Shown here in pieces: positions 57 through 20,225 of a stretch of DNA of 64,000 nucleotides. Position 1 is the first letter of the stretch; each line of letters begins with the position of its first letter. This DNA is from an uncultured Ignavibacteria bacterium (GTDB taxonomy: Bacteria; Zixibacteria; MSB-5A5; SM1-73), in assembly GCA_964348415.1 (NCBI GenBank), contig CAYGCR010000001.1:10639-74638 (forward strand), in the 5' to 3' direction. The notes below the pieces were generated by a model. It had not been told where the DNA came from, made no database searches, and saw only the letters and a program-made list of their open reading frames with translations. The translations under genes were made by a program, and so were the position numbers.

Positions 57-1454
57 ATGGCTCTTAGGTTCTATAACACTCTGACGAGAATGAAAGACGA
101 GTTCCACACGGTTCATCCGGGTGAGGTCAAGATGTACACCTGCGGGCCCACCGTCTACGACTTCGCTCATATCGGTAACTTCAGAGCTTATGTTTTCGCC
201 GACGTACTGCGCCGGTATCTGGAGTACAAGGGCTACAAGGTTACTCAAGTCGTTAACGTGACCGACGTGGACGACAGGACCATCGACGGATCGCAAAAGC
301 AAGGAATTCCGCTGGAGAAGTACACCAAGAAGTATAAGGACGCCTTCTTCGAGGACCTAAATAGCCTGAACATCAAGCCGGCCGAAGTCTATCCGGAAGC
401 GACCGGACACATAAGAGAGATGGAGGCGTTGGTCAAGAGTCTTCTGGATAAGGGGCACGCGTACGAGAACGAAGGCTCCACTTACTTCAGAATAGCCAGT
501 TTTCCCCAGTACGGCAAGTTGTCCCACATGGACATGTCAGGCCTGAAGGCTGGTGCCAGAGTAGCAGCTGACGAATACGACAAAGAGCAGGTGGCAGATT
601 TCGCGCTGTGGAAAGGATGGGACGAAAAAGATGGACCGGTCTTCTGGGAGACGGAGGTAGGAAAAGGTCGCCCCGGATGGCACATCGAGTGCTCAGCCAT
701 GAGCATGAAGTACTTGGGCCAGCACTTCGACATCCATACCGGCGGGGTGGACCTCATCTTCCCCCATCATGAGAACGAAATCGCCCAGTCAGAATCTGCT
801 ACTGGAGAGAAGTTCGTCAATTTCTGGCTGCATAACGAACACCTGATGGTGGAGGGAAGGAGGATGGCGAAACGCTACGGAAATTACTACGCCTTGCGCG
901 ATCTTCTGGATAAGGGATATAATCCCATCGCCATAAGGTACTTGCTTATGGCCACGCACCACCGGCAACAGTTGAATTTCACCTTCGACGGTCTGGAAGC
1001 AGCCAAGAACGCCCTTCAAAGGCTGTATGATTTTGTCGACAATCTTAGGCTGGTCAGTGGCGAAAAAGACGATCCCGAAATAGATCAGATCTTACAGAAG
1101 GCGAAGGATGACTTCGAAGAAGCATTAGATGATGATCTGAACGCTTCTGAGGCTCTGGGTGTCGTCTTTACGCTGGTCAAAGACGTGAATCGATTGATGG
1201 ATGAGAAAAAGATTTCCACCTCCGGTGCCAATAAGGTTCTGGGATTGACTGACTCTTTTGACTCTGTCTTTGGTTTGTTGAGAAGAGAAGAGCTGATTTT
1301 GGATGAAGAGATAAAAGCGTTGATTGAGAAAAGGACCCAAGCCAGAAAGGCAAAAGACTTCAAGCTGGCAGATCAGATAAGAAAAGATCTTGAGGAGAGA
1401 GGTATTATTCTGGAGGATACGCCTGAAGGAACAAAGTGGAAGAAGAAAATGTAG
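57..1454 (+). CDS. cysS: Cysteine--tRNA ligase
   Basis: YTCGPTVY, HIGN, GRPGWHIECSAM, DIHTGGVDLIFPHHENEIAQ and C-terminal ADQIRKDL..RGIILED motifs; KMSKS loop reads RMAKR. Confidence 0.97.
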   Translation: MALRFYNTLTRMKDEFHTVHPGEVKMYTCGPTVYDFAHIGNFRAYVFADVLRRYLEYKGYKVTQVVNVTDVDDRTIDGSQKQGIPLEKYTKKYKDAFFEDLNSLNIKPAEVYPEATGHIREMEALVKSLLDKGHAYENEGSTYFRIASFPQYGKLSHMDMSGLKAGARVAADEYDKEQVADFALWKGWDEKDGPVFWETEVGKGRPGWHIECSAMSMKYLGQHFDIHTGGVDLIFPHHENEIAQSESATGEKFVNFWLHNEHLMVEGRRMAKRYGNYYALRDLLDKGYNPIAIRYLLMATHHRQQLNFTFDGLEAAKNALQRLYDFVDNLRLVSGEKDDPEIDQILQKAKDDFEEALDDDLNASEALGVVFTLVKDVNRLMDEKKISTSGANKVLGLTDSFDSVFGLLRREELILDEEIKALIEKRTQARKAKDFKLADQIRKDLEERGIILEDTPEGTKWKKKM

Positions 1455-1605
1455 GACGCACTCCAGACTTTGGGTCTGATTTCTGGCAAAAGTCGCCCCG
1501 TTCCGGTTTCAACATCATCTCAGTCAGGGACGGGGCGCTTCTATGGAAGGGAACAATGAGGAGCAGATGTCTGTTTCGTGTTCTCTTCTGAGACTTAGTT
1601 TGTTG

Positions 1606-1634
1606 TTGACTTAACAGACAGGGAAGACTATATT
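1606..1634 (+). promoter_or_regulatory. Sigma70-type promoter for the tRNA pair
   Basis: TTGACT-N17-TATATT, about 25 nt upstream of tRNA-Arg. Confidence 0.7.
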
Positions 1635-1658
1635 GCCGACGACAGAAAATAGAGTATT

Positions 1659-1732
1659 GCGCCTATAGCTCAACTGGATAGAGCATCTGACTTCGGATCA
1701 GAGGGTTGGGGGTTCGAGTCCCTCTAGGCGCG
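1659..1732 (+). tRNA. tRNA-Arg (anticodon TCG)
   Basis: Acceptor stem GCGCCTA/TAGGCGC, anticodon arm TCTGA-CTTCGGA-TCAGA, T-loop GGTTCGAGTCC; CCA not encoded. Confidence 0.95.
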
Positions 1733-1835
1733 ACCCCGCCGAAGGCGGGACGGTTCACAGAATACAGTCTACGGTTCACGGTTGAAACGGTTTTGGTTTT
1801 TACCGTCAACTGAGAACCGTAAACCGGCGAAGCCC

Positions 1836-1910
1836 GTCCCCATCGTCTAGCCTGGTCTAGGACACCGCCCTTTCACGGCGGCGACACGAGTTCAAATCTC
1901 GTTGGGGACG
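1836..1910 (+). tRNA. tRNA-Glu (anticodon TTC)
   Basis: Acceptor stem GTCCCCA/TGGGGAC, anticodon arm CCGCC-CTTTCAC-GGCGG, T-loop GTTCAAATC; CCA not encoded. Confidence 0.95.
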
Positions 1911-1934
1911 CTTTTTGGGTTAGCGCCGATCCTT

Positions 1935-2098
1935 TCCCTGCCAAGATGGAGGTTTCTTGAAGATCTGCCCGGCGCGAAGGAACGTGTGGAACCCCAGTCA
2001 AGCGAGCAGGAGAACCAACCCTAACGAGTCTCATACCAGAACTGAAGGGAGAAAAACGAGAGGCTCTCCGGATCGAACACACCTCGCCTGGACAGGTA
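1935..2098 (-). ncRNA. Probable 6S RNA
   Basis: About 165-nt rod with paired ends (CCTGTCCAGG/CTTGGCAGG, GAGGT/ACCTC) and a central unpaired bubble; minus strand carries GTGTTCG, GAGCC and CTTGAC..GGGTTC in the order seen in 6S RNAs; one G-U pair favours the minus strand. Confidence 0.5.
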
Positions 2099-2114
2099 TT
2101 TTTTTAAAGATATT

Positions 2115-2142
2115 TTGACAAAAGAGAGTATTTTAGTATATT
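2115..2142 (+). promoter_or_regulatory. Sigma70-type promoter upstream of the LivK-like gene
   Basis: TTGACA-N16-TATATT in an AT-rich patch. Confidence 0.55.
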
Positions 2143-2304
2143 TTGTTAGACCAAGAGCGTCGGCTGAGACTTTTAGATTGGGTTTGGGTGCACTGCTCTT
2201 GACAGGACGTGCATGACAAGCGGACCGGGATGCTGTTGTTTGTCATGTTTTTCTGAAGAGACAACGATGTTAACCCCGGCCTCATTTTAAGGGGACACTC
2301 TTCA

Positions 2305-3459
2305 TTGAGCAAGAAAACCATCCTTTGCGTGACTCTTTCCGCTTTCCTGACGCTGGAACTTCTCTCCTCTTGCGCCGAGAGGGAAGACGAAGGGTCCATA
2401 AGAGTCGGCGTTGTCCTTCCGCTCTCTGGCGAGCTCTCCACGTACGGAAACGAGTGCCTCAAGGGGATCGTTCTGAGGTTGGATGAGGCTAACCGTGAAG
2501 GAGGGGTTCGGGGCAGAAAGTTAAGCTACGTTAGCGAAGACAACCAGGGAGATCCTTTGAAGACGGCAAACGCGGTTGACCTTCTGGCCAAGGATGACCG
2601 GGTGTTGGCCATCATGGGTGCTGGCATCAGCGAGAACACCTTGGCCGGTGCCTCAGTGGCCCAACATCTAAAGGTCCCGTTGCTTGCTCCGCTGGCCACC
2701 AGCCCGGTGATAACCGAGGTGGGAGATTATATCTCCCGAATCTGCTTCATCGACCCCTATCAGGGAAGCGCGCTGGCTAATTTCGCCTTCTCCTTCTTGA
2801 AGCTGAAGAAGACCGCGGTGTTGACCAGGGAGGAAGATCAGTACAGCGAGGGATTAACGGAGTACTTCATAAAGAGTTATCGTCAGATGGGAGGTGAGAT
2901 AGTCTCTCACCAGTATTATAAGGGAGAGGAGACAGATTTTGTCTCCCGGCTGAAACAAATCCAGGAGAAACAGCCCGAGGCTATCTTCGTCCCCGGCTAT
3001 TGGAGCGAAGCCGCAGCCATCTTCAAGCAGGCAAAGAAGTTGGGGCTGGAACTCTTCCTGCTGGGGGGAGATGGATGGGAGTCGCCGGACTTCTTCAGAG
3101 AGGTGGGGGCCGAGTTGGAGGAGACCGACAAGATCTATATCACCAGCCATTTCTCTGTTGAAAACGTCGATGTCCGGGCCAAGAAGTTCGTCGAGGACTA
3201 CAGAAAAGTCCACGGCGAGGAACCATCAGCTCCCGCAGCCTTGGGATACGATGCGGCCGGAGTCCTGATCGACGCCTTGAAGCGGACACCCCAGCTATCC
3301 AGGGATGCTTTGAAGGACGCTATAAACACTACATCCAACTTCCCCGGGGTGACCGGCACTATCACCCTGAATGAGAAGAGAAACGCGGTCAAGCCGATAG
3401 TCATATTGAAACCGTACAAGGGCAAGTTCATCTACTTTGCCACGTCCACCGGGTTTTAG
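2305..3459 (+). CDS. ABC transporter substrate-binding lipoprotein, LivK/branched-chain amino acid family
   Basis: Lipobox LSSC, IRVGVVLPLSG, EDNQGDP, RICFIDPYQG, AALGYDA, FPGVTGTITL; TTG start. Confidence 0.9.
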   Translation: MSKKTILCVTLSAFLTLELLSSCAEREDEGSIRVGVVLPLSGELSTYGNECLKGIVLRLDEANREGGVRGRKLSYVSEDNQGDPLKTANAVDLLAKDDRVLAIMGAGISENTLAGASVAQHLKVPLLAPLATSPVITEVGDYISRICFIDPYQGSALANFAFSFLKLKKTAVLTREEDQYSEGLTEYFIKSYRQMGGEIVSHQYYKGEETDFVSRLKQIQEKQPEAIFVPGYWSEAAAIFKQAKKLGLELFLLGGDGWESPDFFREVGAELEETDKIYITSHFSVENVDVRAKKFVEDYRKVHGEEPSAPAALGYDAAGVLIDALKRTPQLSRDALKDAINTTSNFPGVTGTITLNEKRNAVKPIVILKPYKGKFIYFATSTGF

Positions 3460-3494
3460 CAGCATGCCCTGATCCTGGAGGAGGCACAGGTCAC

Positions 3495-4670
3495 ATGAGG
3501 ATAAAAGAGAAGGCGATAGTCCTAATTCTGTTGTTAGTGATCTCCTCTCTCTGGTGGGTCCGGACCTCTTCTCAGACGTCCTACAATCCAGACCTCTACG
3601 GAATCAGCAGGTATCGTTATACCTCCGCCCAGGTCTGCAAGCAGTGTCACACTCAGATCTACCGGATCTGGTCACAGTCCATGCACGCCAAAGGGATTGA
3701 GGATCCCGTCTTCAAGGCGGACTACCTCTCCGCCATCATGGAGGAGGGGGAAGAGATAAAAAGCTATTGTCTCTCCTGTCATGTGCCGACGGTGAAGAAG
3801 ACCGCTGACTATACAATCAAGCGGGAGATCTCCAAGGAGGGGGTTACCTGTGATTTCTGCCACTCCATCTCCGCGGTGGATCTGTCCAATCCGGACGAGC
3901 CTTTCGAGATGGACATAGGTGAGCGAAAATACGGACCTTATGAGGATGCCGATTCTCCCGCTCACGCCACAGTGCCGTCCAAGATGCATACCGAGTCGGA
4001 GTTTTGCGGAGGCTGTCACGAGCTGGTGAATAAGAACGGAGCTTTGATCATGGGCACCTATTCCGAGTGGAAGGAGAGCCCCTATCCGGCCAAGGGAATC
4101 CACTGCCAGAATTGTCACATGCCCACGATATTCGGCATGCCTGTGGTGGATCCTAAGATAAAGAAGACCGATCACATGCTCACCGCGCACGAGTTCCTGG
4201 GAGGACACTCGCAGATCAACCTGGCGCACGCGGCTCAGGTTGAGACCGACGTGGAGATCAAAGGGAATAAGGCCACGGTCATCACTTATGTTACCAATGC
4301 GGAGTCGGGTCACAAGCTCCCCACGGGTACGCCCTCCCGAAAGGTGATTCTGGAGACGAGAATCACGGACAATTCGGGTAACATTTTGGCGGAAACGAAG
4401 AAGGTATATCGGAAGGTGCTGGTGGACGAAAACGGGGTGATCCTGGAGAAGAGCTTCGACATGATCCTGAAGGCCAAAAGCATATTCAGAGACAATAGAA
4501 TCGCCCCCAAGGAGACCCGGAAGGAAGAGTTCGTCTTTGACATCCCCAAGGGTGTCAAATCCTTCCAGGTGGAAAGCACCTTGAAATACGAGTTCTTCAC
4601 GCCTATAATCACCACCAGAAAGATGGAAGTGGAGATGGCACAGGATTCCAAGTCGATATCGATCAAATGA
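3495..4670 (+). CDS. Exported pentaheme cytochrome c (c554-like) with C-terminal beta-rich domain
   Basis: Five CxxCH (CKQCH, CLSCH, CDFCH, CGGCH, CQNCH), N-terminal hydrophobic segment, WSQSMHA, GHKLPTG. Confidence 0.88.
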   Translation: MRIKEKAIVLILLLVISSLWWVRTSSQTSYNPDLYGISRYRYTSAQVCKQCHTQIYRIWSQSMHAKGIEDPVFKADYLSAIMEEGEEIKSYCLSCHVPTVKKTADYTIKREISKEGVTCDFCHSISAVDLSNPDEPFEMDIGERKYGPYEDADSPAHATVPSKMHTESEFCGGCHELVNKNGALIMGTYSEWKESPYPAKGIHCQNCHMPTIFGMPVVDPKIKKTDHMLTAHEFLGGHSQINLAHAAQVETDVEIKGNKATVITYVTNAESGHKLPTGTPSRKVILETRITDNSGNILAETKKVYRKVLVDENGVILEKSFDMILKAKSIFRDNRIAPKETRKEEFVFDIPKGVKSFQVESTLKYEFFTPIITTRKMEVEMAQDSKSISIK

Positions 4671-4752
4671 TCTGCTTCGACCTTGAATCCGTCAGTAGCG
4701 TTGCTGACAAAGTATCCTCAAAAGACCGTAACTCCCGAAAAAACGCGAAAGC

Positions 4753-5253
4753 ATGAAAAGACTGATTCTTGGCATCATCGGCTTGGTCTTTCTGATCATT
4801 GTTGTCAGTGCTACGGGGTGGCTCCAAATCGGAGCCACCAGACAGCCAATCGCGTTCAATCACTCAAAACACGCAGAGCAAGGCTTGGAATGTGTGGATT
4901 GCCACAAGTATGTGACGAAACACAAATTCGCTGGATTGCCTAATATCGAAACCTGCTCCGAGTGTCATGAGGAGAGGCTCACTGAGAGCAAGGAGGAGGA
5001 GAAGCTGGTCCGGTTCATCCAAGATGATGTTCTCATACCCTGGAGCAGCGTTTATCGGCAGCCGGACCACGTCTATTACTCCCATGCCGTCCACGTGGTT
5101 TTGGCTGGTCTGGAGTGCCAGAATTGTCACGGGAATATCGCAGAAAGGGAGACTCCCCCGAAAAGGCCGGCGGTGAACATGTCCATGGACTTCTGCATGG
5201 ATTGCCATCGGAGGCAAAATGCCACTCTGGACTGTCTGGCCTGTCATATTTGA
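4753..5253 (+). CDS. Membrane-anchored pentaheme cytochrome c (ActA/QrcA-like)
   Basis: N-terminal TM helix, QPIAFNHSKH, five CxxCH (CVDCH, CSECH, CQNCH, CMDCH, CLACH), PDHVYYSHAVH. Confidence 0.9.
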   Translation: MKRLILGIIGLVFLIIVVSATGWLQIGATRQPIAFNHSKHAEQGLECVDCHKYVTKHKFAGLPNIETCSECHEERLTESKEEEKLVRFIQDDVLIPWSSVYRQPDHVYYSHAVHVVLAGLECQNCHGNIAERETPPKRPAVNMSMDFCMDCHRRQNATLDCLACHI

Positions 5254-5266
5254 GAGAGATTAGAAG

Positions 5267-7675
5267 ATGCGCGTGTCACGAAGAGAGTTTTTGACGTTCC
5301 TTTCCACGGTAGGCTTATCGTCGTCCCTTCTTGGCTACCTTCCTCGGAGTCTGAGGGCTCAAACGGAGGTGAGGCAGTCCAATCTCCCCCTGCTGGAAGA
5401 CTGGGTGCCTTCCGTTTGCCGACAGTGTCCGGGAGGATGCGGCATCCTGGTGAGAGTGATTCAGGGAAAGGCGATAAAGATCGAAGGTAATCCCCTGCAT
5501 CCGGTTAACCAAGGAAGGTTGTGTCCCAAGGGGCAGTCCGGCCTGCACGTTCTTTATGATCCCGACAGGATAAGGTCCCCTCTGAGGCGCAAGGGTGAGA
5601 GGGGAGCGGGAAAGTGGGAGGAGATCGGATGGGAGGAAGCGATAGGGCAGGTCTCAGACAAGCTGAAAGAACTACGGCGAGAGGACGATGCCCGCTCCCT
5701 GGTGGTTCTCTCCGGGCAGAAGCGGGGAATCGGATCTGAGCTTCTGGAGAGTTTTACCAAGGTTTTTGGCTCCCCAAACTTCGTACTTGACGATTCAGAC
5801 TACAGCCTTTTTTCCCCGTCGGTTTTCTTCATGCAGGGAGTCGACGGCAGACCCTGTTACGACCTTTTGAACGCAAATTACGTTCTATCGTTCAACAGCT
5901 CGATCCTCGAGACTTCCTGGTCTCCGGTACAGGCCATGAGGGCGTACGGCAGCCTCCGGGAGAGGAGACTTTTGAAGCGCTCCAGATTGGTGCATGCGGG
6001 GCCGTACCTTTCGCTGACCGCTGCCAAAGCCGACGAGTGGATTCCCATAACTCCGGGTACCGAAGCTGCCTTAGCCTTGAGCATGTGCCATGTGATCATT
6101 CGTGAGGGTCTGTCAGACCAAGGCTTCTTGTCCAAGTTTACCTTCGGATTCGACGACTGGCAGGACCGCGAGGGAAAAGGGCACATGGGTTTCAAGACCT
6201 TGGTACTGAGAGACTATGGTCCCGGTGACGTCTCGGAGCTTACCGGGATTCCCACTCAAGACATAATCCGATTGGCCAAGGAATTCTCTTTGGCAAAACC
6301 ATCTCTGGCCATCGACGAGGGCCAAGCTGTGGCGCAAAGTCAGGACACATATGCCAAGATGGCCATTCATGCCCTGAACGCCCTGTCAGGTAACATTGAC
6401 GTGCCTGGGGGAGTTCTGTCCCCCAGGCGGCCCGCCTCCTTTGACCTTCCGATTCCCCAGCCGGGCAGCCGCTCCCAGCGAAGCCCGGCCAACAACAGAA
6501 CCGGAGGAAAGGATTATCCACGGGGCTCGGAGCCTCTCGATCAGTTACCTCACAAGATCATGAAAGAGGACCCCCATCCGGTGAGGTGTCTTTTCCTCCA
6601 TTACTCCAATCCTCTTTTTTGCTCGGTCGATTCATCGGCTTTCTCGGAGGCCTTCAAGAAAGTTCCCTTCATCGTAAGTTTCTCTCCCTTCATGGATGAG
6701 AGCTCCCGACATGCTGATGTTATTCTGCCGGACTGCACCTACCTGGAGAAATGGGAGGACGATCCCTACCATACACTGGAGGGTTTCCCACTTCTCAGCG
6801 TAATGCAGCCGGCAGTTCGGCCGGTGTACAACACCACGAATACGGCGGACGCTATCCTGTTGATTTCAAAGAAAGTCTTAGATAACGAGTCTTCGGCTTA
6901 TCCCTGGAGCGATGCCCGGGAGCTAATCAGGCAGAGACTGAAGAACGTCTTCAATACTGCCAGAGGGGACGTCTTTGGGGAGGATTACGAGACCATCTGG
7001 ATAAGGCTGTTGGAGAACATCGGCTGGAGATCCGTATCCTACTCCTCCTTTGAGGAGTTCTTTGACGAGGTCTTGAGAAAGGGCGGCTGGTGGGATCCCA
7101 TGTACTATCACGGCGAATGGGATCGACTTCTCAAAACCCCCAGCGGGAAGTTCGAATTCTTCTCACAGGAACTTCTCGCGCGGTCCGAGTCGGGAGACTT
7201 ACCGAAGTCCGTCGCCCTGGGAGACGTAGCCTGTCTGCCTCACTATGAGCCGGTTAACCCGGATGATGGTGGGAAGGGATATCATTTCCTTCTGAATGTC
7301 TACCCGTTGTTGGCCTTCTTCGGAGGCAGGAATGCCAATCAGGCCTGGCTAAAAGACCTCTCGGGTTTAAAGATTCAGGAGAGGTGGGACGGATGGGTGG
7401 AGATCAATCCGGAAAGCGCCAAGGGGCTGGGAGTCTCTACCGGGGACTGGGTGTGGGTGGAGTCGCGTTTCGGAAAACTGAAGCTGAAGGTAAAGCTCTT
7501 CCCCGGCACTCGACCGGAGGTTGTCAACGTTCCCTTTGGATTCGGTCGCAACAGCGGGGGAAGATGGGCGAAAGATGAGGGAGAGAACATCAACGCTGTG
7601 ACGCAGAAGAAATACGATAGTATAGCTGGTAATGCCCTGTGGAATTATACCAGGGTCAGAATCTATAAAGCCTGA
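5267..7675 (+). CDS. Tat-exported molybdopterin oxidoreductase-fold subunit (QrcB/ActB1-like)
   Basis: Tat motif SRREFL, Fe-S motif CRQCPGGC...LCPKG, YDPDRIRSPL, TAAKADEWIPI.PGTE, C-terminal WVEINP domain. Confidence 0.9.
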   Translation: MRVSRREFLTFLSTVGLSSSLLGYLPRSLRAQTEVRQSNLPLLEDWVPSVCRQCPGGCGILVRVIQGKAIKIEGNPLHPVNQGRLCPKGQSGLHVLYDPDRIRSPLRRKGERGAGKWEEIGWEEAIGQVSDKLKELRREDDARSLVVLSGQKRGIGSELLESFTKVFGSPNFVLDDSDYSLFSPSVFFMQGVDGRPCYDLLNANYVLSFNSSILETSWSPVQAMRAYGSLRERRLLKRSRLVHAGPYLSLTAAKADEWIPITPGTEAALALSMCHVIIREGLSDQGFLSKFTFGFDDWQDREGKGHMGFKTLVLRDYGPGDVSELTGIPTQDIIRLAKEFSLAKPSLAIDEGQAVAQSQDTYAKMAIHALNALSGNIDVPGGVLSPRRPASFDLPIPQPGSRSQRSPANNRTGGKDYPRGSEPLDQLPHKIMKEDPHPVRCLFLHYSNPLFCSVDSSAFSEAFKKVPFIVSFSPFMDESSRHADVILPDCTYLEKWEDDPYHTLEGFPLLSVMQPAVRPVYNTTNTADAILLISKKVLDNESSAYPWSDARELIRQRLKNVFNTARGDVFGEDYETIWIRLLENIGWRSVSYSSFEEFFDEVLRKGGWWDPMYYHGEWDRLLKTPSGKFEFFSQELLARSESGDLPKSVALGDVACLPHYEPVNPDDGGKGYHFLLNVYPLLAFFGGRNANQAWLKDLSGLKIQERWDGWVEINPESAKGLGVSTGDWVWVESRFGKLKLKVKLFPGTRPEVVNVPFGFGRNSGGRWAKDEGENINAVTQKKYDSIAGNALWNYTRVRIYKA

Positions 7676-7685
7676 GAATCGTGGC

Positions 7686-8369
7686 ATGCCAAAGTGGGGA
7701 ATGGTCATAGATCTGGATAAGTGCACCGCCTGCGGTGCCTGTGTGGTGGCTTGCCAGGCGGAGAACAACGTTCCTCCTCCCGACTCGGAAGACCGCAAAA
7801 AGGGTAAGTCGATCCAGTGGATCGATATCATTCCGTTTGTGGAGGGGGAATATCCCTTCGTGAAGATGAGACTGTTGCCAAGACCCTGCATGCATTGCGA
7901 TCACCCGCCCTGCGTTCGAGTCTGTCCGGTGAGAGCGACTTACATCAACGACGAGGGTTTGGTGGGCCAGATTTACCCCCGTTGTATCGGTTGCAGGTAC
8001 TGCACCACGGCCTGCCCATACACGGTTAGGTATTTCAACTGGAAGACGCCTCACTGGCCCGAGAAAATGAGGAACTCGCTCAATCCGGACGTGTCGGTCA
8101 GGACCAAGGGGGTGGTGGAGAAGTGCTCCTTCTGTCACCACCGACTGCTCAAGGCCAGAGAGACAGCTAAGATGGAGAAAAGGAAGTTGCGGGAAACAGA
8201 TTACATACCCGCCTGTGTGCAGACCTGTCCCAGCGGAGCAATGCATTTCGGCGATTTGGAAGACCCGGAGGGCAACGTCTCAAAGTTGGCCCGAGACCTG
8301 CGCGCCTTTAAGCTTATGGAAGATTTGGGTACTGAGCCCAAGGTCATCTACCTGCGGGAGGGAGGCTAA
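7686..8369 (+). CDS. 4Fe-4S dicluster subunit (NrfC/PsrB/QrcC-like)
   Basis: KWGMVIDLDKCTACGAC, CMHCDHPPCVRVCP, CIGCRYCTTACPY, KCSFC...CVQTCP; start moved to ATG 7686 to avoid overlap with the upstream gene. Confidence 0.93.
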   Translation: MPKWGMVIDLDKCTACGACVVACQAENNVPPPDSEDRKKGKSIQWIDIIPFVEGEYPFVKMRLLPRPCMHCDHPPCVRVCPVRATYINDEGLVGQIYPRCIGCRYCTTACPYTVRYFNWKTPHWPEKMRNSLNPDVSVRTKGVVEKCSFCHHRLLKARETAKMEKRKLRETDYIPACVQTCPSGAMHFGDLEDPEGNVSKLARDLRAFKLMEDLGTEPKVIYLREGG

Positions 8370-9698
8370 TTGGAAGATCAGAAGAATCTGGCAGGCGAAG
8401 ACGAGATTCTGTTTCAGCCAATACTGAAGACCGGAAAGAGATTCTATCTGGTAGTGGGTATCCTGCTGTCGCTGTGGGCAGGAGGAGCGTTGGCCTACTT
8501 CACCCAGCTCGAGTCCGGCCTGGGCGTTACCGGGCTGAATCGACCCGTGTTCTGGGGTATCTACATCATCAATTTTGTTTTCTTCATTGGAATAAGCCAT
8601 GCCGGGACTCTGATTTCCGCCATCCTGAGGCTCTCCAAGGCGGAGTGGAGGAGGCCCATCACCAGATCGGCCGAGGTGATCACCGTGATGGTGCTTTTCT
8701 TTGGGGTGGGGAATATCTTGATCGACTTAGGGAGAATCGACCGGATGTTCAACATCATCAAGCATGCCCAGTTTCGTTCTCCCCTTCTCTGGGACGTGGC
8801 CAGCATCACCATCTACTTGACCGCCAGCAGCATCTATCTCTTTCTGCCCCTGATCCCGGACATAGCTCTGCTCAGGGACAGGGGGGAGAAGAGGAAGCGG
8901 TTATACAGAATCCTCTCCCTGGGTTGGATGGGAACTCCCAAACAATGGAGGCGTTTGGAGATAGGAATTGGTATCATGGCTATTCTGGTCATCCCTATTG
9001 CCGTCTCCGTGCACACCGTGGTTTCCTTCGTCTTTGCCATGACCATTCAGCCTATGTGGCATTCGGCTATCTTTGGACCCTATTTCGTGGCCGGGGCAAT
9101 ATTCTCGGGGATCGCCGCATTGATCATCGCCATGTTTATTATCAGGAAAGTATATCATCTGGAGGACTATCTGAAACCGATTCATTTCAACTACCTGGGA
9201 ATTCTTCTTCTGGTCATGACCTTGCTGTGGTTCTATTTCACCTTCACCGAGTACCTGACCACCTTCTACGGTGCGGAGCCGGTTCACATGTCTATCTTCT
9301 ATTCCAAGTTGACCGGTCGCTTCGCCCCCTATTTTTGGATGATGTTCATCACCTGTTTTGTGATACCTTTCGTGCTTCTGTGCAACAGTAAAACCAGAAC
9401 TGTGACAGGAACCGTGATCGCCTCGGTCTCGGTCACCATCGGAATGTGGCTGGAGAGATTCACCATAGTGGTCCCAACCCTTATCAACCCCAGGTTGCCC
9501 TCGGGCTATACCGTCTATCATCCTACCTGGGTAGAGTATCTCGTGACCGTGGCCTGCTTTGCCGCATTCATCCTGTTCTATGTCCTATTCACCAAATTCT
9601 TCCCCATCGTCTCGATCTGGGAGATTCGCGAGGGAAGAGAAAAGGCGTTGAAGGAAGTTGAGGAGAGGGTAAAGACATATTTCCCGGGTGCTGAATGA
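8370..9698 (+). CDS. NrfD/PsrC-family membrane quinone-interacting subunit (ActC-like)
   Basis: NFVFFIGISHAGTLISAIL, WRRPITRSAE, SPLLWD, VSVHTVVS, MWLERF; many TM helices; abuts the upstream stop. Confidence 0.92.
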   Translation: MEDQKNLAGEDEILFQPILKTGKRFYLVVGILLSLWAGGALAYFTQLESGLGVTGLNRPVFWGIYIINFVFFIGISHAGTLISAILRLSKAEWRRPITRSAEVITVMVLFFGVGNILIDLGRIDRMFNIIKHAQFRSPLLWDVASITIYLTASSIYLFLPLIPDIALLRDRGEKRKRLYRILSLGWMGTPKQWRRLEIGIGIMAILVIPIAVSVHTVVSFVFAMTIQPMWHSAIFGPYFVAGAIFSGIAALIIAMFIIRKVYHLEDYLKPIHFNYLGILLLVMTLLWFYFTFTEYLTTFYGAEPVHMSIFYSKLTGRFAPYFWMMFITCFVIPFVLLCNSKTRTVTGTVIASVSVTIGMWLERFTIVVPTLINPRLPSGYTVYHPTWVEYLVTVACFAAFILFYVLFTKFFPIVSIWEIREGREKALKEVEERVKTYFPGAE

Positions 9699-9737
9699 GA
9701 TGTTTCGATAACAGCAATCAAAGCTGAGGGCCAAGAA

Positions 9738-10907
9738 GTGGGTTTGAGAGTCGGAAGAGTCAATTCAGTCCTGTGGGGGTCGGTGCTTCTCTTTTTCTTT
9801 CTGACCTTCCTGGGTTTTTCTCAGGTTGAGTTTCGTCTCTCCCCGGGTGAGGTCAAAGAGGGCTGGAGAGTCTTTTATCAAAAGGGTTGCTTTGAATGCC
9901 ACTCGTTGTGGGGTCAGGGCGGAAGGGTGGGTTCCGAACTATCCGGGAAGACCGGGGAGGTCCTCTCCGCCACCAAATTGGCAGGCATATTGTGGAACCA
10001 TGCCCCCGAGATGTGGCACCGCATGGGGGAGGAGAAGATAGCCTCCGTTCAGATCGGGGAGGAGGAGATGGCTCACCTGCTCAGCTTCCTTTATTTCATC
10101 CGGTTCACGGACCAGCCCGGGGACACAGCCCGAGGGGAGAAGCTGCTTTACGAGAAGCGGTGTGGGCTGTGCCATTCGCTTCGCGGTGCAGGAGGAAAAA
10201 TCGGTGCAGACCTGTCAACCTGGGGGAATTTCGTCAACCCCATCCTCTGGGCTCAGATAATGTGGAATCACGCTCCCCAAATGAGAGAAGAGATGAGAAG
10301 AAGAGAGCTCTCCTGGCCCCAGTTCCAGGAAGGCGAGATGAACGATTTGATCAGCTATATAAGAAGCGTAAGTCCACCCCAAGAGAGGGTCTATCTCCCC
10401 TTGGGCAACCCGGAGTCGGGAAGGGGACTGTTCTCCCAAAAGGGATGCGGAAACTGTCACAGTGTGGGAGAGGGGAAAGGAATTGATCTGACCAGGGTCG
10501 AACCATTCCCCTTAACCTTCAGCCAGGTGGGCGCTCTGATGTGGAATCATCTACCCAAGATGTGGAACCTGATGGAGCGGAAAGGGATCAGTCCTTCGGA
10601 GCTTTCAGCCCAAGAGATGGCTGATCTTATTTCCTATATCATCTCCTCGCGCTATTTCAAGCGTGGAGGAAAAGAAGAGGTCGGCAAGAGAATATTCTCG
10701 GAGAAAAGGTGCGATCTGTGCCACACTGCAGAGACCGCTCTGGGCGGATTGGAAGAAGAGATCACCCCGATCTTCCTGGCTCATTCCATGTGGAATCACG
10801 GCCAGACAATGTTGAGGGAGATGAGAGAGAGGGGGCTCAAGTGGCCTGAATTCCGGGATGATGAAGTGGAGCACCTGCTGGAGTATCTCAATAGCCGCGC
10901 AGAATAA
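9738..10907 (+). CDS. Cytochrome c with four tandem class I-like heme domains
   Basis: CFECH, CGLCH, CGNCH, CDLCH, each followed by a [LM]WNHxxxM motif; N-terminal signal/TM segment. Confidence 0.85.
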   Translation: MGLRVGRVNSVLWGSVLLFFFLTFLGFSQVEFRLSPGEVKEGWRVFYQKGCFECHSLWGQGGRVGSELSGKTGEVLSATKLAGILWNHAPEMWHRMGEEKIASVQIGEEEMAHLLSFLYFIRFTDQPGDTARGEKLLYEKRCGLCHSLRGAGGKIGADLSTWGNFVNPILWAQIMWNHAPQMREEMRRRELSWPQFQEGEMNDLISYIRSVSPPQERVYLPLGNPESGRGLFSQKGCGNCHSVGEGKGIDLTRVEPFPLTFSQVGALMWNHLPKMWNLMERKGISPSELSAQEMADLISYIISSRYFKRGGKEEVGKRIFSEKRCDLCHTAETALGGLEEEITPIFLAHSMWNHGQTMLREMRERGLKWPEFRDDEVEHLLEYLNSRAE

Positions 10908-11091
10908 GATGGTTTGCCCGTACCGAAACCAGAGCGCAACCTGTTATTCTCAGGGGCAAAGTTCCACACCCAGAAAGTCTTTTTCAGACTGATCCCCGCT
11001 AGATAAAGGCCCAGAACGTCAAAGGGCTTGGTCAAGGCGGGAAAGGACGAAAGACCGAAGCGTCAAAACACCCTAACCAGGAGAACGTGTC

Positions 11092-11232
11092 GTCATCGAA
11101 CTGCTCAAGAGATTCAACGTTTTCGAGGGCATGGAAGATGAGGAGTTGCAGGAGATCGCCTCGTCTTGTAGCATAAAGCAGTTCTCGAAGGGAGAACAGG
11201 TCTTCCGGGCGGGAGACCCCGGTCCCATTTAG
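11092..11232 (+). pseudogene. Truncated cyclic-nucleotide-binding (Crp/Fnr-type) domain fragment
   Basis: Translates VIELLKRFNVFEGMEDEELQEIASSCSIKQFSKGEQVFRAGDPG then stops; SD-like AGGAGA at 11079-11084 precedes an out-of-frame GTG. Confidence 0.7.
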
Positions 11233-12043
11233 CCATATCGTAGACCGTCGAGTAGAGCCCTCCGGCCGAATACGGTAGGCTACTGTGAACTGCTACCCCA
11301 GGCACAAGGGTACTCGCGGAATCGAACGTGTGGCCCCTTGCCGAGCCAGGTAGATCCATGAATCCATCCGGGAAACTGCTATTGCTCATGCCAAGCGGCT
11401 CAAAAACGTGTTTACGCATATATTCCCGGTAAGTCTCCCCCGATACTTTTTCAATGATCAAACCAAGCAGATAATAACCTGAGTTGCTATAGCGCCATTC
11501 CGAGCCAGGTTCGAATAGCAGAGGAAGATCTTTGAATATGGACACAACATCTTCTAATCTGGCCGGCCTGTCGTACATTTCCTCAAACCGCGGCAAATCA
11601 GTATATTCGGTAATACCTGACGTATGAGTCAACAGATGGTAGGAAGTAACCTCGTCACCTGCTGGTTTGGGATAGTCTGGCAAGTACTTGACTATTGGAT
11701 CGTCGAGATTCAGAAGCTTCTTTTCTGCCAGTTGCATGATGGCAGTTGCGGTAAACTGCTTTGTCACAGAACAGATCAGGTATTTCGTTTCCGGCGTATT
11801 CGGCTCGGACGATGAAACATCAGCCATGCCGTATCCCTTGGTGAAAAGAACTTTGTCGTCTTTCGCGACCAGGACAGCGCCGCTGAAATTCAGAACGCGC
11901 TGAGCGGCATCAAGGTACTCTTCGAATTTCTGGTCTAAGGTCTGCGCCGATGATATATTGGCTGACGTCATTATGACGAATGCGGCAAGGCAGAATAGTG
12001 CGAAACGGTGTCGGTGCGTCTTTAATTTGAATAGTGGTGACAT
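11114..12043 (-). pseudogene. C-terminally truncated serine hydrolase (beta-lactamase class C-like family)
   Basis: Signal peptide, SVTK (SxxK), YSNSGY, AGGLYSTVYDMAKWDR, then non-homologous tail from about 11220; SD GGAGG before ATG 12043. Confidence 0.8.
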
Positions 12044-12097
12044 GGTACCTCCAATGATTTGATTGAACACTGTGTGCTCTTATTCTGAGTTGAACGA

Positions 12098-12445
12098 CTA
12101 TTTATTCTCGGAATCTTTGCGAACCCCAGGCGGCTTAGTGAACAACTCCTTCATCTTGTTGCGATAGATCTCAAACGCTTCTCTACCTTGGTCGGTCAGG
12201 CTGAGGAACGTCTTAGGTATCTTGCCGACGAACTCCTTCTGAACGGTCAGATACCCGGCCACCTCCAGTTTACTCAGGTGTGAAGACAGATTCCCCGGCG
12301 TCAGGTGAGTTTGATTCTGGACAAAGAGGAATTCGGCTCTCTCGATCACGTAGAGCAACGCCATAATGTCGTATCTCGCCGGCTCATGAATGAGCCGATC
12401 GACCTCGGACAACCGGTAGCTGTCGGCGTCGTTATCTGTCGACAT
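12098..12445 (-). CDS. Winged-helix transcriptional regulator (MarR/ArsR-like)
   Basis: IHEPARYDIMALL, LTPGNLSSHLSKLE.AGY, LTDQGREAF; start ATG 12445 overlaps the upstream gene end. Confidence 0.85.
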   Translation of the reverse strand: MSTDNDADSYRLSEVDRLIHEPARYDIMALLYVIERAEFLFVQNQTHLTPGNLSSHLSKLEVAGYLTVQKEFVGKIPKTFLSLTDQGREAFEIYRNKMKELFTKPPGVRKDSENK

Positions 12446-13070
12446 CAGGCGCCTCCGGGGTTGGCTTTGGGTATTTCTTCGTGAATCCGGAAAGAAGCGT
12501 GAGTCCATAAACGAGGATTACGGCCCCCGGTATGCCAAAGCTAATAAGGGAGTTGAATGGCTTGTCAAGGTATCGATACATGAAATCCGAATAGGGAATA
12601 CCGACGAACAGTACCGCCGCATAGACGTACATTCGAGGATAGTCCAGGAAATAAGCCGCGATAACTATCACGGGCGCTAGGACCAGACCCACGGTCAGCG
12701 GTAAGCCGAAATTCTCTGCCAGACTTGCTCCGAAACCTTTTGCCGTTGTCATGAGAAGCAACGGAAGCGTGAGGAAAAAGAAGGCGGCACAGATCACCAG
12801 GAAGAATAGCCTTCTTGATCTCCGTTTTGGTCCAAACTCAACAGCCCCCAGCCTCGGAATCGTGACGCACCGCTTCCCCAACCAGACAAAAACAGCGGGG
12901 ATGAACCCAAACAGATATCCGTAGAATCTAGGGATTCCGATGGACTGCAGAACCGGGATCAACGCCAGAATCAGAAACAGCATCCCAAAGAGGATATCGT
13001 AGATACCGTCGTCGAAGGTTGAGCGATACGCCCTCCTCTCGATTTCCTTGAGGGAATCAGTCATTCTCAT
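12432..13070 (-). CDS. Multi-pass membrane protein of unknown function
   Basis: About six hydrophobic segments; overlaps the wHTH gene start. Confidence 0.75.
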   Translation of the reverse strand: MRMTDSLKEIERRAYRSTFDDGIYDILFGMLFLILALIPVLQSIGIPRFYGYLFGFIPAVFVWLGKRCVTIPRLGAVEFGPKRRSRRLFFLVICAAFFFLTLPLLLMTTAKGFGASLAENFGLPLTVGLVLAPVIVIAAYFLDYPRMYVYAAVLFVGIPYSDFMYRYLDKPFNSLISFGIPGAVILVYGLTLLSGFTKKYPKPTPEAPDVDR

Positions 13071-13110
13071 AGATGATCACCTCCGTTGAACGAGTTATGT
13101 TGGGTCAAGG

Positions 13111-13127
13111 ACTTTGCGTTACAAACT
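13111..13127. promoter_or_regulatory. Candidate operator for the wHTH regulator
   Basis: Near-palindrome ACTTTG-N5-CAAACT about 40 nt upstream of the operon start. Confidence 0.4.
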
Positions 13128-13431
13128 ATTCTACGTAGCAGAACTAAGATTGTTTCACAATGTCAAGAAAATTCACAAATTTTCTGCCTGGATCGAAAGA
13201 ATCCCCGTTAGGCTCTCAGACGTCACAGGTCAACCTAAGCGCTTGTTATACAACATATTATTGTTAGAATGGATTGATCAAGAGGGGGGATAAAGTGGAA
13301 GTCAGTCTGGAGTCCAAAAAGGCAGCGTCGTTAAAGTACTGACCTGCCCCGACATTTCTGTTCTGTCAGGTCGTGCCCTGACAGCCGCAGCCGAAGTCCG
13401 CATTCCGGATACAGACATGCACTCTTCATGA

Positions 13432-13478
13432 GCGTCAGGTCACAGTCAGGGCGGGGCATGAGTAAGACCTGACGCAAC
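13432..13478. repeat. REP-like palindromic element, family A
   Basis: GCGTCAGGTC...GACCTGACGC; shares CATGAGYAAGACCTGAC.CAAC with the copy at 20158-20205. Confidence 0.65.
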
Positions 13479-13534
13479 CGGAAAGCCCCGGCACAGTCGA
13501 GGGCTCTCTCATCACCCAGACTCCGGGGCGGTCG

Positions 13535-16859: not shown

Positions 16860-17097
16860 CAAGCACTCCTTCCAGGATTCTGAATTGAATGGATAAATCA
16901 TTCCAACTTACGTTCCTTTGCGGGCTTTACTGAAGTAAATTGATAATCTATTGAACCGTCAAAGTCAAGCACGAAATTACTGTCACACAGGGAGCGTGAC
17001 TCGGTCTGCCCTGCCTAGGCGGGGAAGCTTGCCAGACCGCGTATATTCCGGCCAAGCAGGCATGGCAAGCCATGAGCAAGACATGCTGCAACTGAAC

Positions 17098-17148
17098 GGA
17101 CACTGCCTTTGACGGCGGCGACAAGAGTTCAAATCTCGTTGGGGACGC
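17098..17148 (+). repeat. Degenerate direct repeat of the 3' half of tRNA-Glu (att-like relic)
   Basis: Matches 1860-1911 with 3 substitutions and 1 deletion; GAGTTCAAATCTCGTTGGGGACGCT is identical; 5' half of the tRNA is absent. Confidence 0.85.
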
Positions 17149-17849
17149 TCTTTTTATCCGAACTTCCCCCAAAGCAACCCTCTAAACAACAAGTCAAACG
17201 GGACAGAACGAAATCGCCAAGCCAAAACAAAGCCAACCAAATTGGTTTATTTTGACTTGAAGACGGCACAAGTCCGGCTCAAAACTCCAATCCAGGTTTT
17301 TCCGAAAAATGCGGAGTATCGTTGCCGGAGTAGTCCAATACATCAGGTGCGCGAAACGCCTGTTTTTTTGTACGTAATCCTATGAACCTCGATAACTCTG
17401 ATTTGGTCAGAAGCATTAGATTTGCCCTGCAACTCCTAAGGCGCTTTTCTTTTCCCAAACCCTTTGCAAGCCGAACGCAGTTCAGCATGCCTTTGACAGC
17501 AGACCTAGTCTTGCGATGAGTGATCACTTGCCGCTTATTAGGCATGTTGTGCTGGTAACCTGAATACGCTTGTTTTGACTCACGGGGTCGGAAATCCGTT
17601 CAGTGCTTCGCAACAAGAAAGAGGTTGATTCACGGCCACGAATGGTTTATAATCCACAAGAATAGTTTTATATCTATTGTAAGGAGTCAACAGAAAGAAT
17701 GACACGAGTATTAATAATGATATAAAATATGCCAGGGGCTCAGAATGCCGAAAATGGAGGGAAAGAGAGATAGGCAACAAGGAACAGCTGGTGTGATTCA
17801 ATAAAACCAAGCAGAGGACAACAGTTAAATAAACAGCCAACATTTTTGA

Positions 17850-18836: not shown

Positions 18837-18864
18837 CTATCCATAACTGAGTACGGGATCAAGG

Positions 18865-19566: not shown

Positions 19567-19749
19567 GATAGTGACGGAGGAGATGCTTTTGGCTACTTCG
19601 AAAATAATCTGCTTTGCTTGAATGATTGGCAAAGATCAGTAGCCCCGTGCTCCTGACAGTATTCTTGTCATCTGAAACCTCGCCCCTGAGTCATCCTCTC
19701 CACAATGGTTGACCTACAAAATCGTGCCGAAGCTGGCGGCATTTTTCTC

Positions 19750-19778
19750 TTGATTTTTCCAAGCGAAGTGCATAATAT
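19750..19778 (+). promoter_or_regulatory. Sigma70-type promoter of the histone-fold gene
   Basis: TTGATT-N17-TAATAT; SD AAGGAGG at 19825-19831. Confidence 0.5.
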
Positions 19779-20205: not shown

Positions 20206-20225
20206 GAAGACTATTGTGATCGAGG

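Follow-up and report, generated by a model that had tools for sequence, protein, structure and literature searches.

A predicted quinone-interacting operon with an ActC-like membrane subunit, a molybdenum-fold protein and multiheme cytochromes represents a widespread family akin to alternative complex III and Qrc

The DNA studied here, referred to below as the window, is a 64 kb stretch of contig CAYGCR010000001.1 from an uncultured Ignavibacteria bacterium, and our subject is an operon at positions 3495-10907 of its + strand that encodes three multiheme c-type cytochromes together with a molybdenum-fold (Mo-fold) subunit, an iron-sulfur (Fe-S) subunit and an NrfD-family membrane protein. Six + strand open reading frames (ORFs) make up the operon, with intergenic gaps of 0-83 bp, and the gene calls match on two public copies of the contig (the NCBI metagenome assembly and a Logan assembly), the exception being the start of the Fe-S gene, which is placed at 7686 and not at 7632. 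The six genes are:

3495..4670, + strand: pentaheme cytochrome of the c552/ExtKL(MccSep) family, 391 amino acids (aa), accessory and outside the conserved core
4753..5253, + strand: ActA/QrcA-like pentaheme cytochrome, 166 aa, membrane-anchored
5267..7675, + strand: subunit of the molybdenum-bis(pyranopterin guanosine dinucleotide) (Mo-bisPGD) fold, 802 aa, exported by the twin-arginine translocation (TAT) route
7686..8369, + strand: Fe-S subunit, 227 aa (245 aa from the alternative start 7632), four Cys groups
8370..9698, + strand: NrfD-family integral membrane subunit, 442 aa, about ten hydrophobic segments
9738..10907, + strand: tetraheme class-I cytochrome c, 389 aa, four tandem domains behind an N-terminal hydrophobic helix

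An earlier interpretation made from the DNA letters (the sequence-only reading) had proposed a core order of pentaheme, Mo-fold subunit, Fe-S subunit and NrfD, with an ActB-like part split into two genes. Both statements are borne out by the ORF coordinates and by Pfam, which places a pentaheme domain, Molybdop_Fe4S4 with Molybdopterin and Molydop_binding, a Fer4 dicluster and NrfD in this order, the Mo-fold and Fe-S parts being separate genes. N-terminal hydrophobic helices are found on all three cytochromes, which between them carry the 14 CxxCH heme sites that had been counted (5+5+4). A 15th CxxCH (CSFCH, 8124-8138) lies at residues 147-151 of the Fe-S protein, in its fourth Fe-S cysteine group; it is a cluster motif, not a heme site.

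The operon is not peculiar to this genome. When one genome per species was scanned for relatives of the Mo-fold protein, matches were found in at least 592 species genomes, so the operon is one member of a large conserved family. More than 2,000 Mo-fold relatives were retrieved at E ≤ 1e-20, many of them full-length at 43-47% identity, and the few that bear a name are labelled only as molybdopterin oxidoreductases from metagenome-assembled genomes (MAGs). The best 80 of the at least 592 loci, all from MAGs and labelled in the style of L003, span about ten phyla and come from Thermodesulfobacteriota, Aminicenantes, Acidobacteriota, Nitrospirota, NC10/Methylomirabilota, Rokubacteria, Zixibacteria RBG-1, Planctomycetia, Binatia, Tectomicrobia, Calditrichaeota, Gemmatimonadota, Chloroflexota and Anaeromyxobacter. 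The six window proteins were searched against every ORF of these 80 loci and neighbours were scored around 76 Mo-fold genes, with the loci assessable for a given neighbour as its denominator. The Fe-S gene lies beside the Mo-fold gene in 72 of 72 loci and an NrfD gene in 63 of 64, 55 of these NrfDs being of the window's ActC-like type, while the pentaheme gene stands upstream of the Mo-fold gene in 55 of 70. A four-repeat (tetraheme) cytochrome gene lies downstream in 45 of 58 loci overall; it is present in 43 of the 50 loci with an ActC-like NrfD and in two of the eight with another NrfD type. Pentaheme, Mo-fold, Fe-S, NrfD and tetraheme is the recurring order, and its conservation from phylum to phylum takes the arrangement far beyond what chance would give.

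The membrane subunit resembles that of alternative complex III (ACIII). Its residues 76-86 read S-HAGTLISAIL, where ActC of Rhodothermus marinus has GHAGTLISAIL, and the HAGTLISAIL motif noted in the sequence-only reading is therefore present as described. The protein scores 260 (R. marinus), 242, 226 and 224 bits against the four ActC chains in the PDB and 44 bits against ActF; among NCBIfam models, QrcD gives 34 bits (cut-off 570) and DsrP 136 bits (cut-off 350). The roles assigned to ActC residues in the R. marinus structure paper (PMC5928083) were mapped onto the family alignment. All 14 residues of the cytoplasmic half-channel are conserved in the NrfD protein, as is the coupling residue Ser245, and four of six residues of the periplasmic half-channel are kept, with Tyr323 replaced by Thr in every member and Glu338 by His or retained as Glu. 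In the quinol pocket, His139 of ActC corresponds to Asp119 (Asp in 58 of 58 family members), Asp253 to Val221 (Val, Ile or Leu across the 58 members) and Pro136 to Ile116 (mostly Ile in the family), and the quinol-site residue Asp169 is retained as Asp142. A pairwise HMMER alignment of NrfD with ActC gives the same residue correspondences. These features are consistent with a subunit that carries a quinone/quinol site and a putative proton path.

A neighbour-joining (NJ) tree of NrfD proteins was built with 200 bootstraps on a limited reference set, in which bona fide ActC comprised the four solved structures and the ActC of a canonical ACIII found at locus L079. The window-type NrfDs form a large group adjoining bona fide ActC in this tree. 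ActC was monophyletic, with all family members excluded, in 200/200 replicates, and no replicate placed a family NrfD inside the ActC clade; the family, ActC and ActF together stood apart from the other NrfD types of the loci in 156/200. The window NrfD is 35-39% identical to ActC and 52-74% identical to other family members. By these comparisons the NrfD subunit is a near relative of bona fide ActC that falls beyond the ActC clade and has an altered quinone pocket.

Set against the known ACIII structures (6F0K, 6BTM, 6LOD and 8K9E), the window encodes recognizably similar parts, namely an ActA-like pentaheme cytochrome, a Mo-fold plus four-cluster Fe-S module and a 10-helix NrfD with HAGTLISAIL and the full cytoplasmic half-channel, in a predicted periplasmic topology and with a c-type cytochrome as the exit. 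It differs from ACIII in that the Mo-fold and Fe-S parts are split (as they also are in some ACIII), the FS0 cluster of the Mo-fold subunit is kept, the proximal cluster motif is of the 4Fe-4S type, and His139 and Asp253 are replaced by Asp and Val; it also lacks ActD, ActF and the monoheme lipoprotein ActE, has an anchored tetraheme cytochrome instead, and has no oxidase genes adjacent. When the ActD, ActE and ActF proteins of the L079 ACIII were searched against all window ORFs of at least 40 aa at E ≤ 0.01, ActD and ActE matched none, and ActF matched only the NrfD gene, leaving no second NrfD-like subunit. Pfam searches of ~40 further ORFs of the 64 kb window revealed no oxidase, ccm or quinone-pathway genes. 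Within the window, then, the earlier observation that ActD/E/F and oxidase genes are missing stands.

We consider it very improbable that the operon is an ordinary ACIII whose ActD, ActE, ActF and oxidase genes lie at other sites in the genome. Dozens of loci in many phyla share the five-gene order that lacks ActD/E/F, ActC excludes the family in every bootstrap replicate at an identity well outside the within-family range, and the 3Fe-4S motif and the His139/Asp253 pair are absent; these points outweigh the strong ActA, ActB2 and ActC matches that would favour an ordinary ACIII. The composition of ACIII does vary, as in Caldithrix abyssi, where the operon is actABCEED and has no ActF (PMC5317091), and in clusters with split ActB (PMC4643136); conversely, ActC and ActF are strictly paired in 521 genomes (PMC8076601). 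Locus L079, from a Gemmatimonadota MAG, bears directly on the question in that it carries a complete ACIII and the module side by side in separate operons, the canonical ACIII operon (224-8645, - strand) being divergent to a Mo-fold/Fe-S/NrfD module (9231-14771, + strand). The ACIII of this locus has all six subunits from ActA to ActF, among them a fused ActB with the 3Fe-4S motif and a monoheme ActE that is a lipoprotein. Its operon ends in another pentaheme gene, whose product resembles the window pentaheme (168 bits) more than ActA does (118 bits).

The Fe-S protein contains four complete Cys groups and is predicted to bind four [4Fe-4S] clusters. Its best PDB match is the B2 C-terminal domain of R. 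marinus ActB (201 bits), followed by ArrB (137 bits) and PsrB (118 bits), and it reaches 309 bits against the NCBIfam QrcC model, under the cut-off of 400. Lacking a signal peptide of its own, it presumably rides out with the Mo-fold subunit, which bears the TAT signal. Group III reads CIGCRYC, whereas the corresponding motif of ActB is CIGTRYC, which holds a [3Fe-4S] cluster, and all ActB proteins examined read C-x-G-T-x-x-C; the all-Cys form of group III is found in 70 of 75 Fe-S proteins of the family. A small subclade at L047, L054, L057 and L075, and probably also at L071, has CIGVRMC in place of CxxCxxC, and here a 3Fe-4S cluster is predicted to have arisen independently of ActB.

The Mo-fold protein has an RREFL twin-arginine motif and contains the three Pfam domains of Mo enzymes. 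Its FS0 cysteines (C51, C54, C58 and C86) are retained in every one of 20 relatives compared. The position of the Mo-ligand Cys is occupied by Tyr where ArrA has Cys and by Leu where PsrA has Cys; the ligand loop, GSPNFVLDDSDYSLFS, is devoid of Cys, the loop following the invariant GSPN is poorly conserved, and the substrate-pocket residues of Arr/Arx are not kept. The best structural match is ArrA (250 bits, full length), ahead of PsrA (199 bits) and ActB (60-67 bits), and the NCBIfam models QrcB (305 bits, cut-off 440) and PhsA (308 bits, cut-off 694) are both reached below their cut-offs. Identity is 30-35% to ArrA, ArxA, PsrA and QrcB and 22-31% to three named ActB1 references, so that by sequence identity the protein appears roughly equidistant from ArrA/ArxA/PsrA and QrcB and farther from most ActB1 references. 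Trees were computed by NJ on ~360 N-terminal columns, with the first 400 aa of QrcB, ActB1, ArxA and PsrA references from a paper supplement and with ArrA and PsrA taken from PDB alignments. A BLOSUM62 NJ tree puts the family beside Arr/Arx; the bootstrapped p-distance NJ tree resolves no sister group (family 5/200, family with Arr/Arx 39/200, family with Qrc and ActB1 37/200). ActB groups with Arr/Arx in published work (PMC10100899). The sequence-only reading had called the operon intermediate between the quinone reductase complex (Qrc) and ACIII, which is reasonable as far as it goes and too narrow, the Mo-fold subunit being as close to ArrA/ArxA/PsrA as it is to QrcB.

The fate of the ligand Cys in the family follows the composition of the loci. 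Ten of 76 relatives keep an Arr/Arx-like H-x-S-[ILVM]-C motif (L032, L036, L037, L042, L056, L062, L068, L070, L074 and L082), and at these loci the tetraheme gene is absent in all ten and the pentaheme gene in nine, with a non-ActC NrfD in six; the proteins that keep the motif are probably genuine, uncharacterised molybdoenzymes. No Cys is present in the ligand loop of 58 of the 76, and 38 of these 58 are accompanied by the pentaheme, the ActC-like NrfD and the tetraheme, the rest being mostly cut by contig ends. Loss of the Mo-ligand Cys thus tracks the gain of two cytochromes, or heme wires, in the family, which is the pattern expected if the Mo-fold protein became a scaffold, as in QrcB and ActB. 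We therefore predict from these sequence features that the window's Mo-fold subunit has no Mo active site and is non-catalytic, serving as a scaffold or in electron transfer.

Some of the same data could be read the other way, with the Mo-fold subunit as a true Mo/W-bisPGD enzyme that has an unusual protein ligand or none, acts on a periplasmic substrate, and is linked to the quinone pool by the cytochromes and NrfD. Some Mo enzymes, for example arsenite oxidase, lack a protein ligand to the metal. The operon shares with ArrAB(C)/ArxAB the best structure match of its Mo-fold subunit (ArrA, over the full length) and a good one of its Fe-S subunit (ArrB), together with the TAT signal, the three Pfam domains, a retained FS0 and four all-Cys clusters, and some relatives keep the HSS[IVM]C motif, including the Arr/Arx-like HSSIC. 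It differs from Arr/Arx in lacking the Mo-ligand Cys and the arsenic-binding pocket and in having the pentaheme, the tetraheme and the ActC-like NrfD. TorD/NarJ-type chaperone genes (Pfam Nitrate_red_del) occur in or near the module at eight related loci (L007, L012, L029, L042, L043, L048, L062 and L081), among them L029, where the Mo-fold protein has no Cys in its ligand loop, and given these genes some family members may bind a pterin cofactor. At L012 the chaperone gene follows a second, Arr-like Mo-enzyme gene and not the module. An anaerobic catalytic role was proposed for the RBG-1 homologue by Castelle et al. (PMC3903129). We nevertheless judge a Mo enzyme quite unlikely in the window. 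Neither the ligand Cys nor the Arr/Arx pocket is kept, and in the Cys-less group the loop is variable while structural motifs are invariant; the co-occurrence of Cys loss with the gain of two cytochromes points to a change of function. The window contains no TorD/NarJ-type chaperone gene, and an Rfam scan of it found two tRNAs only and no molybdenum cofactor (Moco) riboswitch. Lastly, the closest characterised relatives that bear cytochromes, QrcB and ActB, are cofactor-less (PMC6303296, PMC5928083).

Two of the three cytochromes belong to the recurring core. The 166-aa pentaheme protein has CxxCH motifs at residues 47, 68, 122, 148 and 161 and a hydrophobic helix at residues 4-22, and it matches ActA in the PDB (8k9e_A 83, 6lod_A 77 and 6f0k_A 75 bits) and the NCBIfam QrcA model (110 bits, under the cut-off of 180). 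Five CxxCH motifs are present in 59 of 65 homologues. It is predicted to serve as a heme wire that exchanges electrons with the Fe-S subunit, in either direction. The 389-aa cytochrome has its four CxxCH motifs at residues 51, 142, 237 and 325, one in each repeat and each with a WNHxPxM-type motif, and scores 75 bits against Pfam Cytochrom_C and 61 bits against Cytochrome_CBB3. Within the repeats CxxCH is invariant, and the WNHxPxM-type motif is largely kept with its terminal Met invariant; a conserved His and a conserved Met are both candidates for the sixth heme ligand. Its 824 relatives have either no name or generic ones. Exactly four CxxCH are found in 60 of 65 homologues, and two are tandem fusions with eight CxxCH and ~770 aa (L003, 8298-10604, and L004, 5544-7856); many other loci have two separate copies in tandem. 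A search of PDB sequences gave no meaningful match to the tetraheme protein, the best being weak stretches of an engineered c555 trimer at 41 bits, and ActE was not matched. The AlphaFold model (pLDDT 83, pTM 0.75) consists of an N-terminal helix and four helical domains, and Foldseek with this model retrieved, weakly (E ≥ 1.7e-3), single class-I cytochromes (c555, Kustd1711, QcrC, NorC and c2) and diheme proteins, and never ActE. A relationship with ActE was rejected on these grounds, there being neither a sequence nor a fold match and the protein having four hemes and no lipobox Cys. The tetraheme cytochrome is the module's signature partner, and it is predicted to act as the exit or the entry of electrons.

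The upstream cytochrome is of another kind. Its five CxxCH motifs (residues 48, 92, 119, 171 and 204) are followed by a heme-free C-terminal domain, and an N-terminal signal or anchor makes it periplasmic by prediction. It matches Pfam Cytochrome_C554 at 52 bits and NCBIfam ExtKL at 98 bits over residues 108-390 (cut-off 250), and in the PDB it comes closest to pentaheme c552 of Thermochromatium tepidum (5ze8, 56 bits). The sequence-only reading, which had described it as a c554-like pentaheme protein, was right as to the five hemes, and the family is c552/ExtKL rather than c554. With 5ZE8 and with Geobacter MccSep/ExtKL (9WT8) it shares the five-heme N-terminal part and the C-terminal domain. 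MccSep was recently shown to reduce polysulfide, for which it requires a Cys ligand to heme (C239) and a selenocysteine (Sec) or Cys (U325) (bioRxiv 10.1101/2025.11.18.688581). All ten cysteines of the 391-aa protein lie in CxxCH motifs and its gene has no in-frame internal TGA, and it therefore lacks the heme-ligating Cys239 and the Sec/Cys325 that define MccSep; a MccSep-type reductase was rejected for want of a free Cys or Sec. Because no Cys lies outside the heme motifs, the protein is most likely a c552/ExtKL-family cytochrome of a non-catalytic type, that is, an electron carrier. The gene stops at a TGA after which the same frame stays open (ORF 4683-4943, within the region 4668-4943) and overlaps the next gene. 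Sec read-through at this TGA was considered and rejected, the open frame being put down to chance, since the ExtKL alignment already ends at the C-terminus of the protein.

A homologue of the 391-aa cytochrome with a convincing score lies within 9 kb of the Mo-fold gene in eight of 76 loci, from NC10, Nitrospirota, Thermodesulfobacteriota and Poribacteria MAGs and one unclassified MAG, and adjoins the operon in seven of the eight, on either strand. It is a recurrent but optional partner outside the conserved core. Of the two dedicated flanking cytochromes envisaged in the sequence-only reading, only the downstream one is thus firmly upheld by synteny, following NrfD in 43 of the 50 loci with this NrfD type.

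Taken together, these results describe a mosaic of which, on present sequence comparisons, no characterised family claims all the parts, related to both ACIII and Qrc and seemingly a member of neither. What the sequence-only reading had proposed, a quinone-linked, periplasm-facing conduit of the kind found in Qrc- and ACIII-type modules with mixed subunit affinities, is supported by the ActC, ActB2 and ActA matches and by the QrcA/B/C scores. We put at about even the chance that the operon encodes a five-subunit, periplasm-facing, quinone-interacting respiratory complex with an accessory cytochrome, working as a non-catalytic quinol:cytochrome c oxidoreductase. By homology with the ACIII structures, menaquinol would give up its electrons in a periplasmic-side pocket of the ActC-like NrfD, and these would be taken up by the four [4Fe-4S] clusters of the Fe-S subunit, whose proximal cluster would sit beside the quinone site. 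From there they would pass to the anchored ActA-like pentaheme, as from FeS1 to heme I in ACIII, and possibly also to FS0 in the Mo-fold subunit, which would lack a Mo active site and act as a scaffold or Fe-S carrier. The exit, in the place of ActE, would be the anchored tetraheme class-I cytochrome c, handing electrons on to soluble partners, for example the pentaheme c552-like cytochrome of the same operon, and to terminal reductases or oxidases encoded elsewhere. The intact ActC-type cytoplasmic half-channel suggests that turnover may be coupled to charge or proton movement even though ActD and ActF are missing. The set of subunits, their topology signals and cofactor motifs, the conserved gene order and the conserved residues are read directly from the sequences; the electron path, the lack of Mo, the coupling to energy and, most of all, the direction in which electrons flow are what we infer. 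Class-I cytochrome c domains generally work at higher potentials than bis-His multihemes. Quinol oxidation is favoured because of the affinities to ActC, ActB2 and ActA, the class-I partner cytochrome and the neighbourhood, at ~19 loci, of a Rieske/cytochrome b complex, which is itself an oxidase of quinol.

Several observations weigh against quinol oxidation by such a complex. The direction of electron flow is not fixed by sequence alone. The proximal cluster has a 4Fe-4S motif, unlike its [3Fe-4S] counterpart beside the quinol site of R. marinus ACIII, with a potential of +140 mV (PMC5928083). His139 and Asp253, which are thought to deprotonate or coordinate quinol, are systematically replaced, and Asp at the His139 position is found also in non-ActC NrfD proteins of the same loci; since these NrfDs are unrelated, His139 looks like an innovation of ActC. 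By numbering only and unaligned, Asp119, Leu139 and Asp142 resemble Asp120, Leu140 and Glu142 of QrcD (PMC6303296), the likeness to Asp120 being the one that tells against quinol oxidation. ActD and ActF, which have been proposed to be necessary for proton pumping by ACIII, are absent from the window. The family NrfDs are monophyletic in just 85/200 replicates of an NJ analysis on limited reference sets. The absence of Mo is itself read from sequence, a few family members keep the loop Cys and eight loci have TorD/NarJ-like chaperones. Moreover, the sequencing runs that hold the operon sequence are DNA metagenomes only, and expression data were not found.

The same complex might run in the reverse direction, in the manner of Qrc, with the periplasmic tetraheme and/or c552-like cytochromes oxidised and menaquinone reduced in an electrogenic redox loop; the donors would be periplasmic dehydrogenases, Fe(II) or others, and cytoplasmic protons would be taken up through the NrfD channel. 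We think this possible though on balance unlikely. QrcABCD of Desulfovibrio has the same order of a multiheme cytochrome, an unfused Mo-fold subunit without a Mo ligand, an Fe-S subunit and NrfD; QrcA, QrcB and QrcC are among the best NCBIfam models for the window proteins (110, 305 and 309 bits), and some QrcB proteins (Desulfatibacillum) also keep FS0. In contrast, all four subunits fall below the curated cut-offs of the Qrc models (NF041781, NF041783, NF041782 and NF041784), and the membrane subunit is ActC-like and not QrcD (260 against 34 bits, the latter with a cut-off of 570), the QrcD and ActC clades being separate (PMC6303296, PMC8076601). The window differs from Qrc further in its extra tetraheme class-I cytochrome and in its predicted 4Fe-4S proximal cluster where Qrc has 3Fe-4S. 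The pocket and channel residues speak on both sides. The replacement of ActC His139 and Asp253 fits a reverse reaction, the Asp being common to non-ActC NrfDs and possibly equivalent to QrcD Asp120 (by numbering only), and a full cytoplasmic half-channel beside a partial periplasmic one is what a proton path from the cytoplasm to the quinone would need. However, the channel-linking Asp70 of QrcD would, by numbering only and unaligned, fall at Phe69 (Phe89 of ActC), a mapping that is likewise inferred.

The distribution of the family also bears on a Qrc-like function. Qrc has been reported only in deltaproteobacterial sulfate reducers, where it works with cytochrome c3 (PMC8076601, PMC6303296). 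Its partners there are a periplasmic hydrogenase or formate dehydrogenase and the type I form of cytochrome c3. The window family, in contrast, is found in about ten phyla, and the 64 kb window has no genes for a periplasmic hydrogenase, formate dehydrogenase, cytochrome c3 or dsr. Class-I cytochrome c domains are, in addition, atypical as low-potential donors. Similar four-gene sets in other phyla have all the same been annotated as Qrc by MAG authors (PMC9324843), and for Fe(II) oxidisers an 'uphill' operation of ACIII-like clusters with split ActB has been proposed (PMC4643136).

Clusters of this kind have already been noticed in MAG papers under three labels, and they are real, widespread and inconsistently annotated. 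Besides the Qrc annotations, an 'ACIII-like' cluster with a four-heme 'ActE-like' protein has been described in a MAG paper (PMC9386147), and the window differs from the 'ACIII-like cluster 4' of MBNT15 SHF-111 in having no separate ActD-like gene. In RBG-1, an 'undescribed DMSO-reductase-family oxidoreductase' was placed as a deep branch beside Arr/Arx; it is described as having a TAT signal and a 4Fe-4S motif, as not conserving the Arr/Arx pocket, and as lying beside mono- and multiheme cytochromes (PMC3903129). These MAG reports (MBNT15 SHF-111, RBG-1) are at the level of annotation, read the clusters as serving Fe(III) reduction or acting on arsenic or another substrate, and define no family. 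The review of NrfD complexes covers ACIII and Qrc and not the arrangement of the window (PMC8076601), and our literature search found no biochemical or structural study of the family. The Zixibacteria RBG-1 locus among the 80 (L059) has the same five-gene module with a Mo-fold protein 42% identical to that of the window; it may be the published RBG-1 gene. Upstream of its module (6356-9484) lie a gene for an Rrf2-family regulator and three small single-CxxCH ORFs, one of them a Pfam-confirmed cytochrome c, and downstream (16105-21523) genes for an EamA transporter, Fur, a TonB-dependent receptor and a ZIP transporter.

Complexes between the quinone pool and periplasmic cytochromes set how much energy is conserved and which electron acceptors can be reached. 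As a tentative suggestion, which we hold possible rather than probable, the family may constitute a distinct class of energy-conserving quinone:cytochrome c oxidoreductase and perhaps preserves an intermediate on the way from Arr/Arx molybdoenzymes to the cofactor-less ACIII and Qrc. An intermediate is suggested because the subunits are unfused, FS0 and four 4Fe-4S clusters are kept, the Mo ligand is lost, heme wires are gained, and an ActC-type channel occurs without ActD/F. If this were true, the class would stand beside bc1/b6f, ACIII and Qrc and would serve anaerobic and microaerobic bacteria of sediment and groundwater. The module occurs in hundreds of uncultured species across many phyla under the labels Qrc, ACIII, Arr-like enzyme or the generic 'molybdopterin oxidoreductase', and given this inconsistent annotation metabolic reconstructions may mistake both its function and its direction. 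With one ActC-type subunit and no ActD/F, the module offers a natural minimal system in which to ask whether NrfD/ActC pumps protons alone, and the loss of the Cys in step with the gain of cytochromes gives a concrete picture of a molybdoenzyme turning into an electron-transfer scaffold.

The surroundings of the module are themselves conserved in part of the family. About 19 Thermodesulfobacteriota/Syntrophaceae-like loci (among L003-L024, L028, L035 and L039) have a conserved gene set directly after the module, ~7-12 kb downstream, encoding a cyclic nucleotide-binding protein, a GltD-like NAD(P)H flavoprotein with Fe-S domains, a cytochrome b6/PetD-like protein, a Rieske protein and a five-heme cytochrome. 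Some 13-16 loci in the same range have a set of tetraheme, Fe-S and second NrfD genes directly before the module, 1-3.5 kb upstream, so that with the sets before and after it three quinone-interacting modules stand in one locus. A histidine kinase and a sigma-54 response regulator are encoded upstream in 14 loci other than L059.

In the window itself a promoter and terminator scan gave nothing exceeding shuffled expectation, and the flanks are unrelated to the operon, with cysS, the two tRNAs and a periplasmic binding protein gene upstream and a gene of the beta-lactamase fold, a regulator and M16 peptidases downstream. The remaining genes serve the cell envelope (MreBC, RodA, PBP2, LptFG, Lgt and glycosyltransferases) or housekeeping. 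For three ORFs of 328, 233 and 212 aa, located at 17850-19566 on the + strand and at 12432-13070 on the - strand, Pfam gave no match at E ≤ 1e-5. A 1195-aa ORF (20226-23813, - strand) is an unusual fusion of an ABC-2-type membrane region and an M1 peptidase domain, and it is adjoined by an ABC ATPase gene at 23921-24793.

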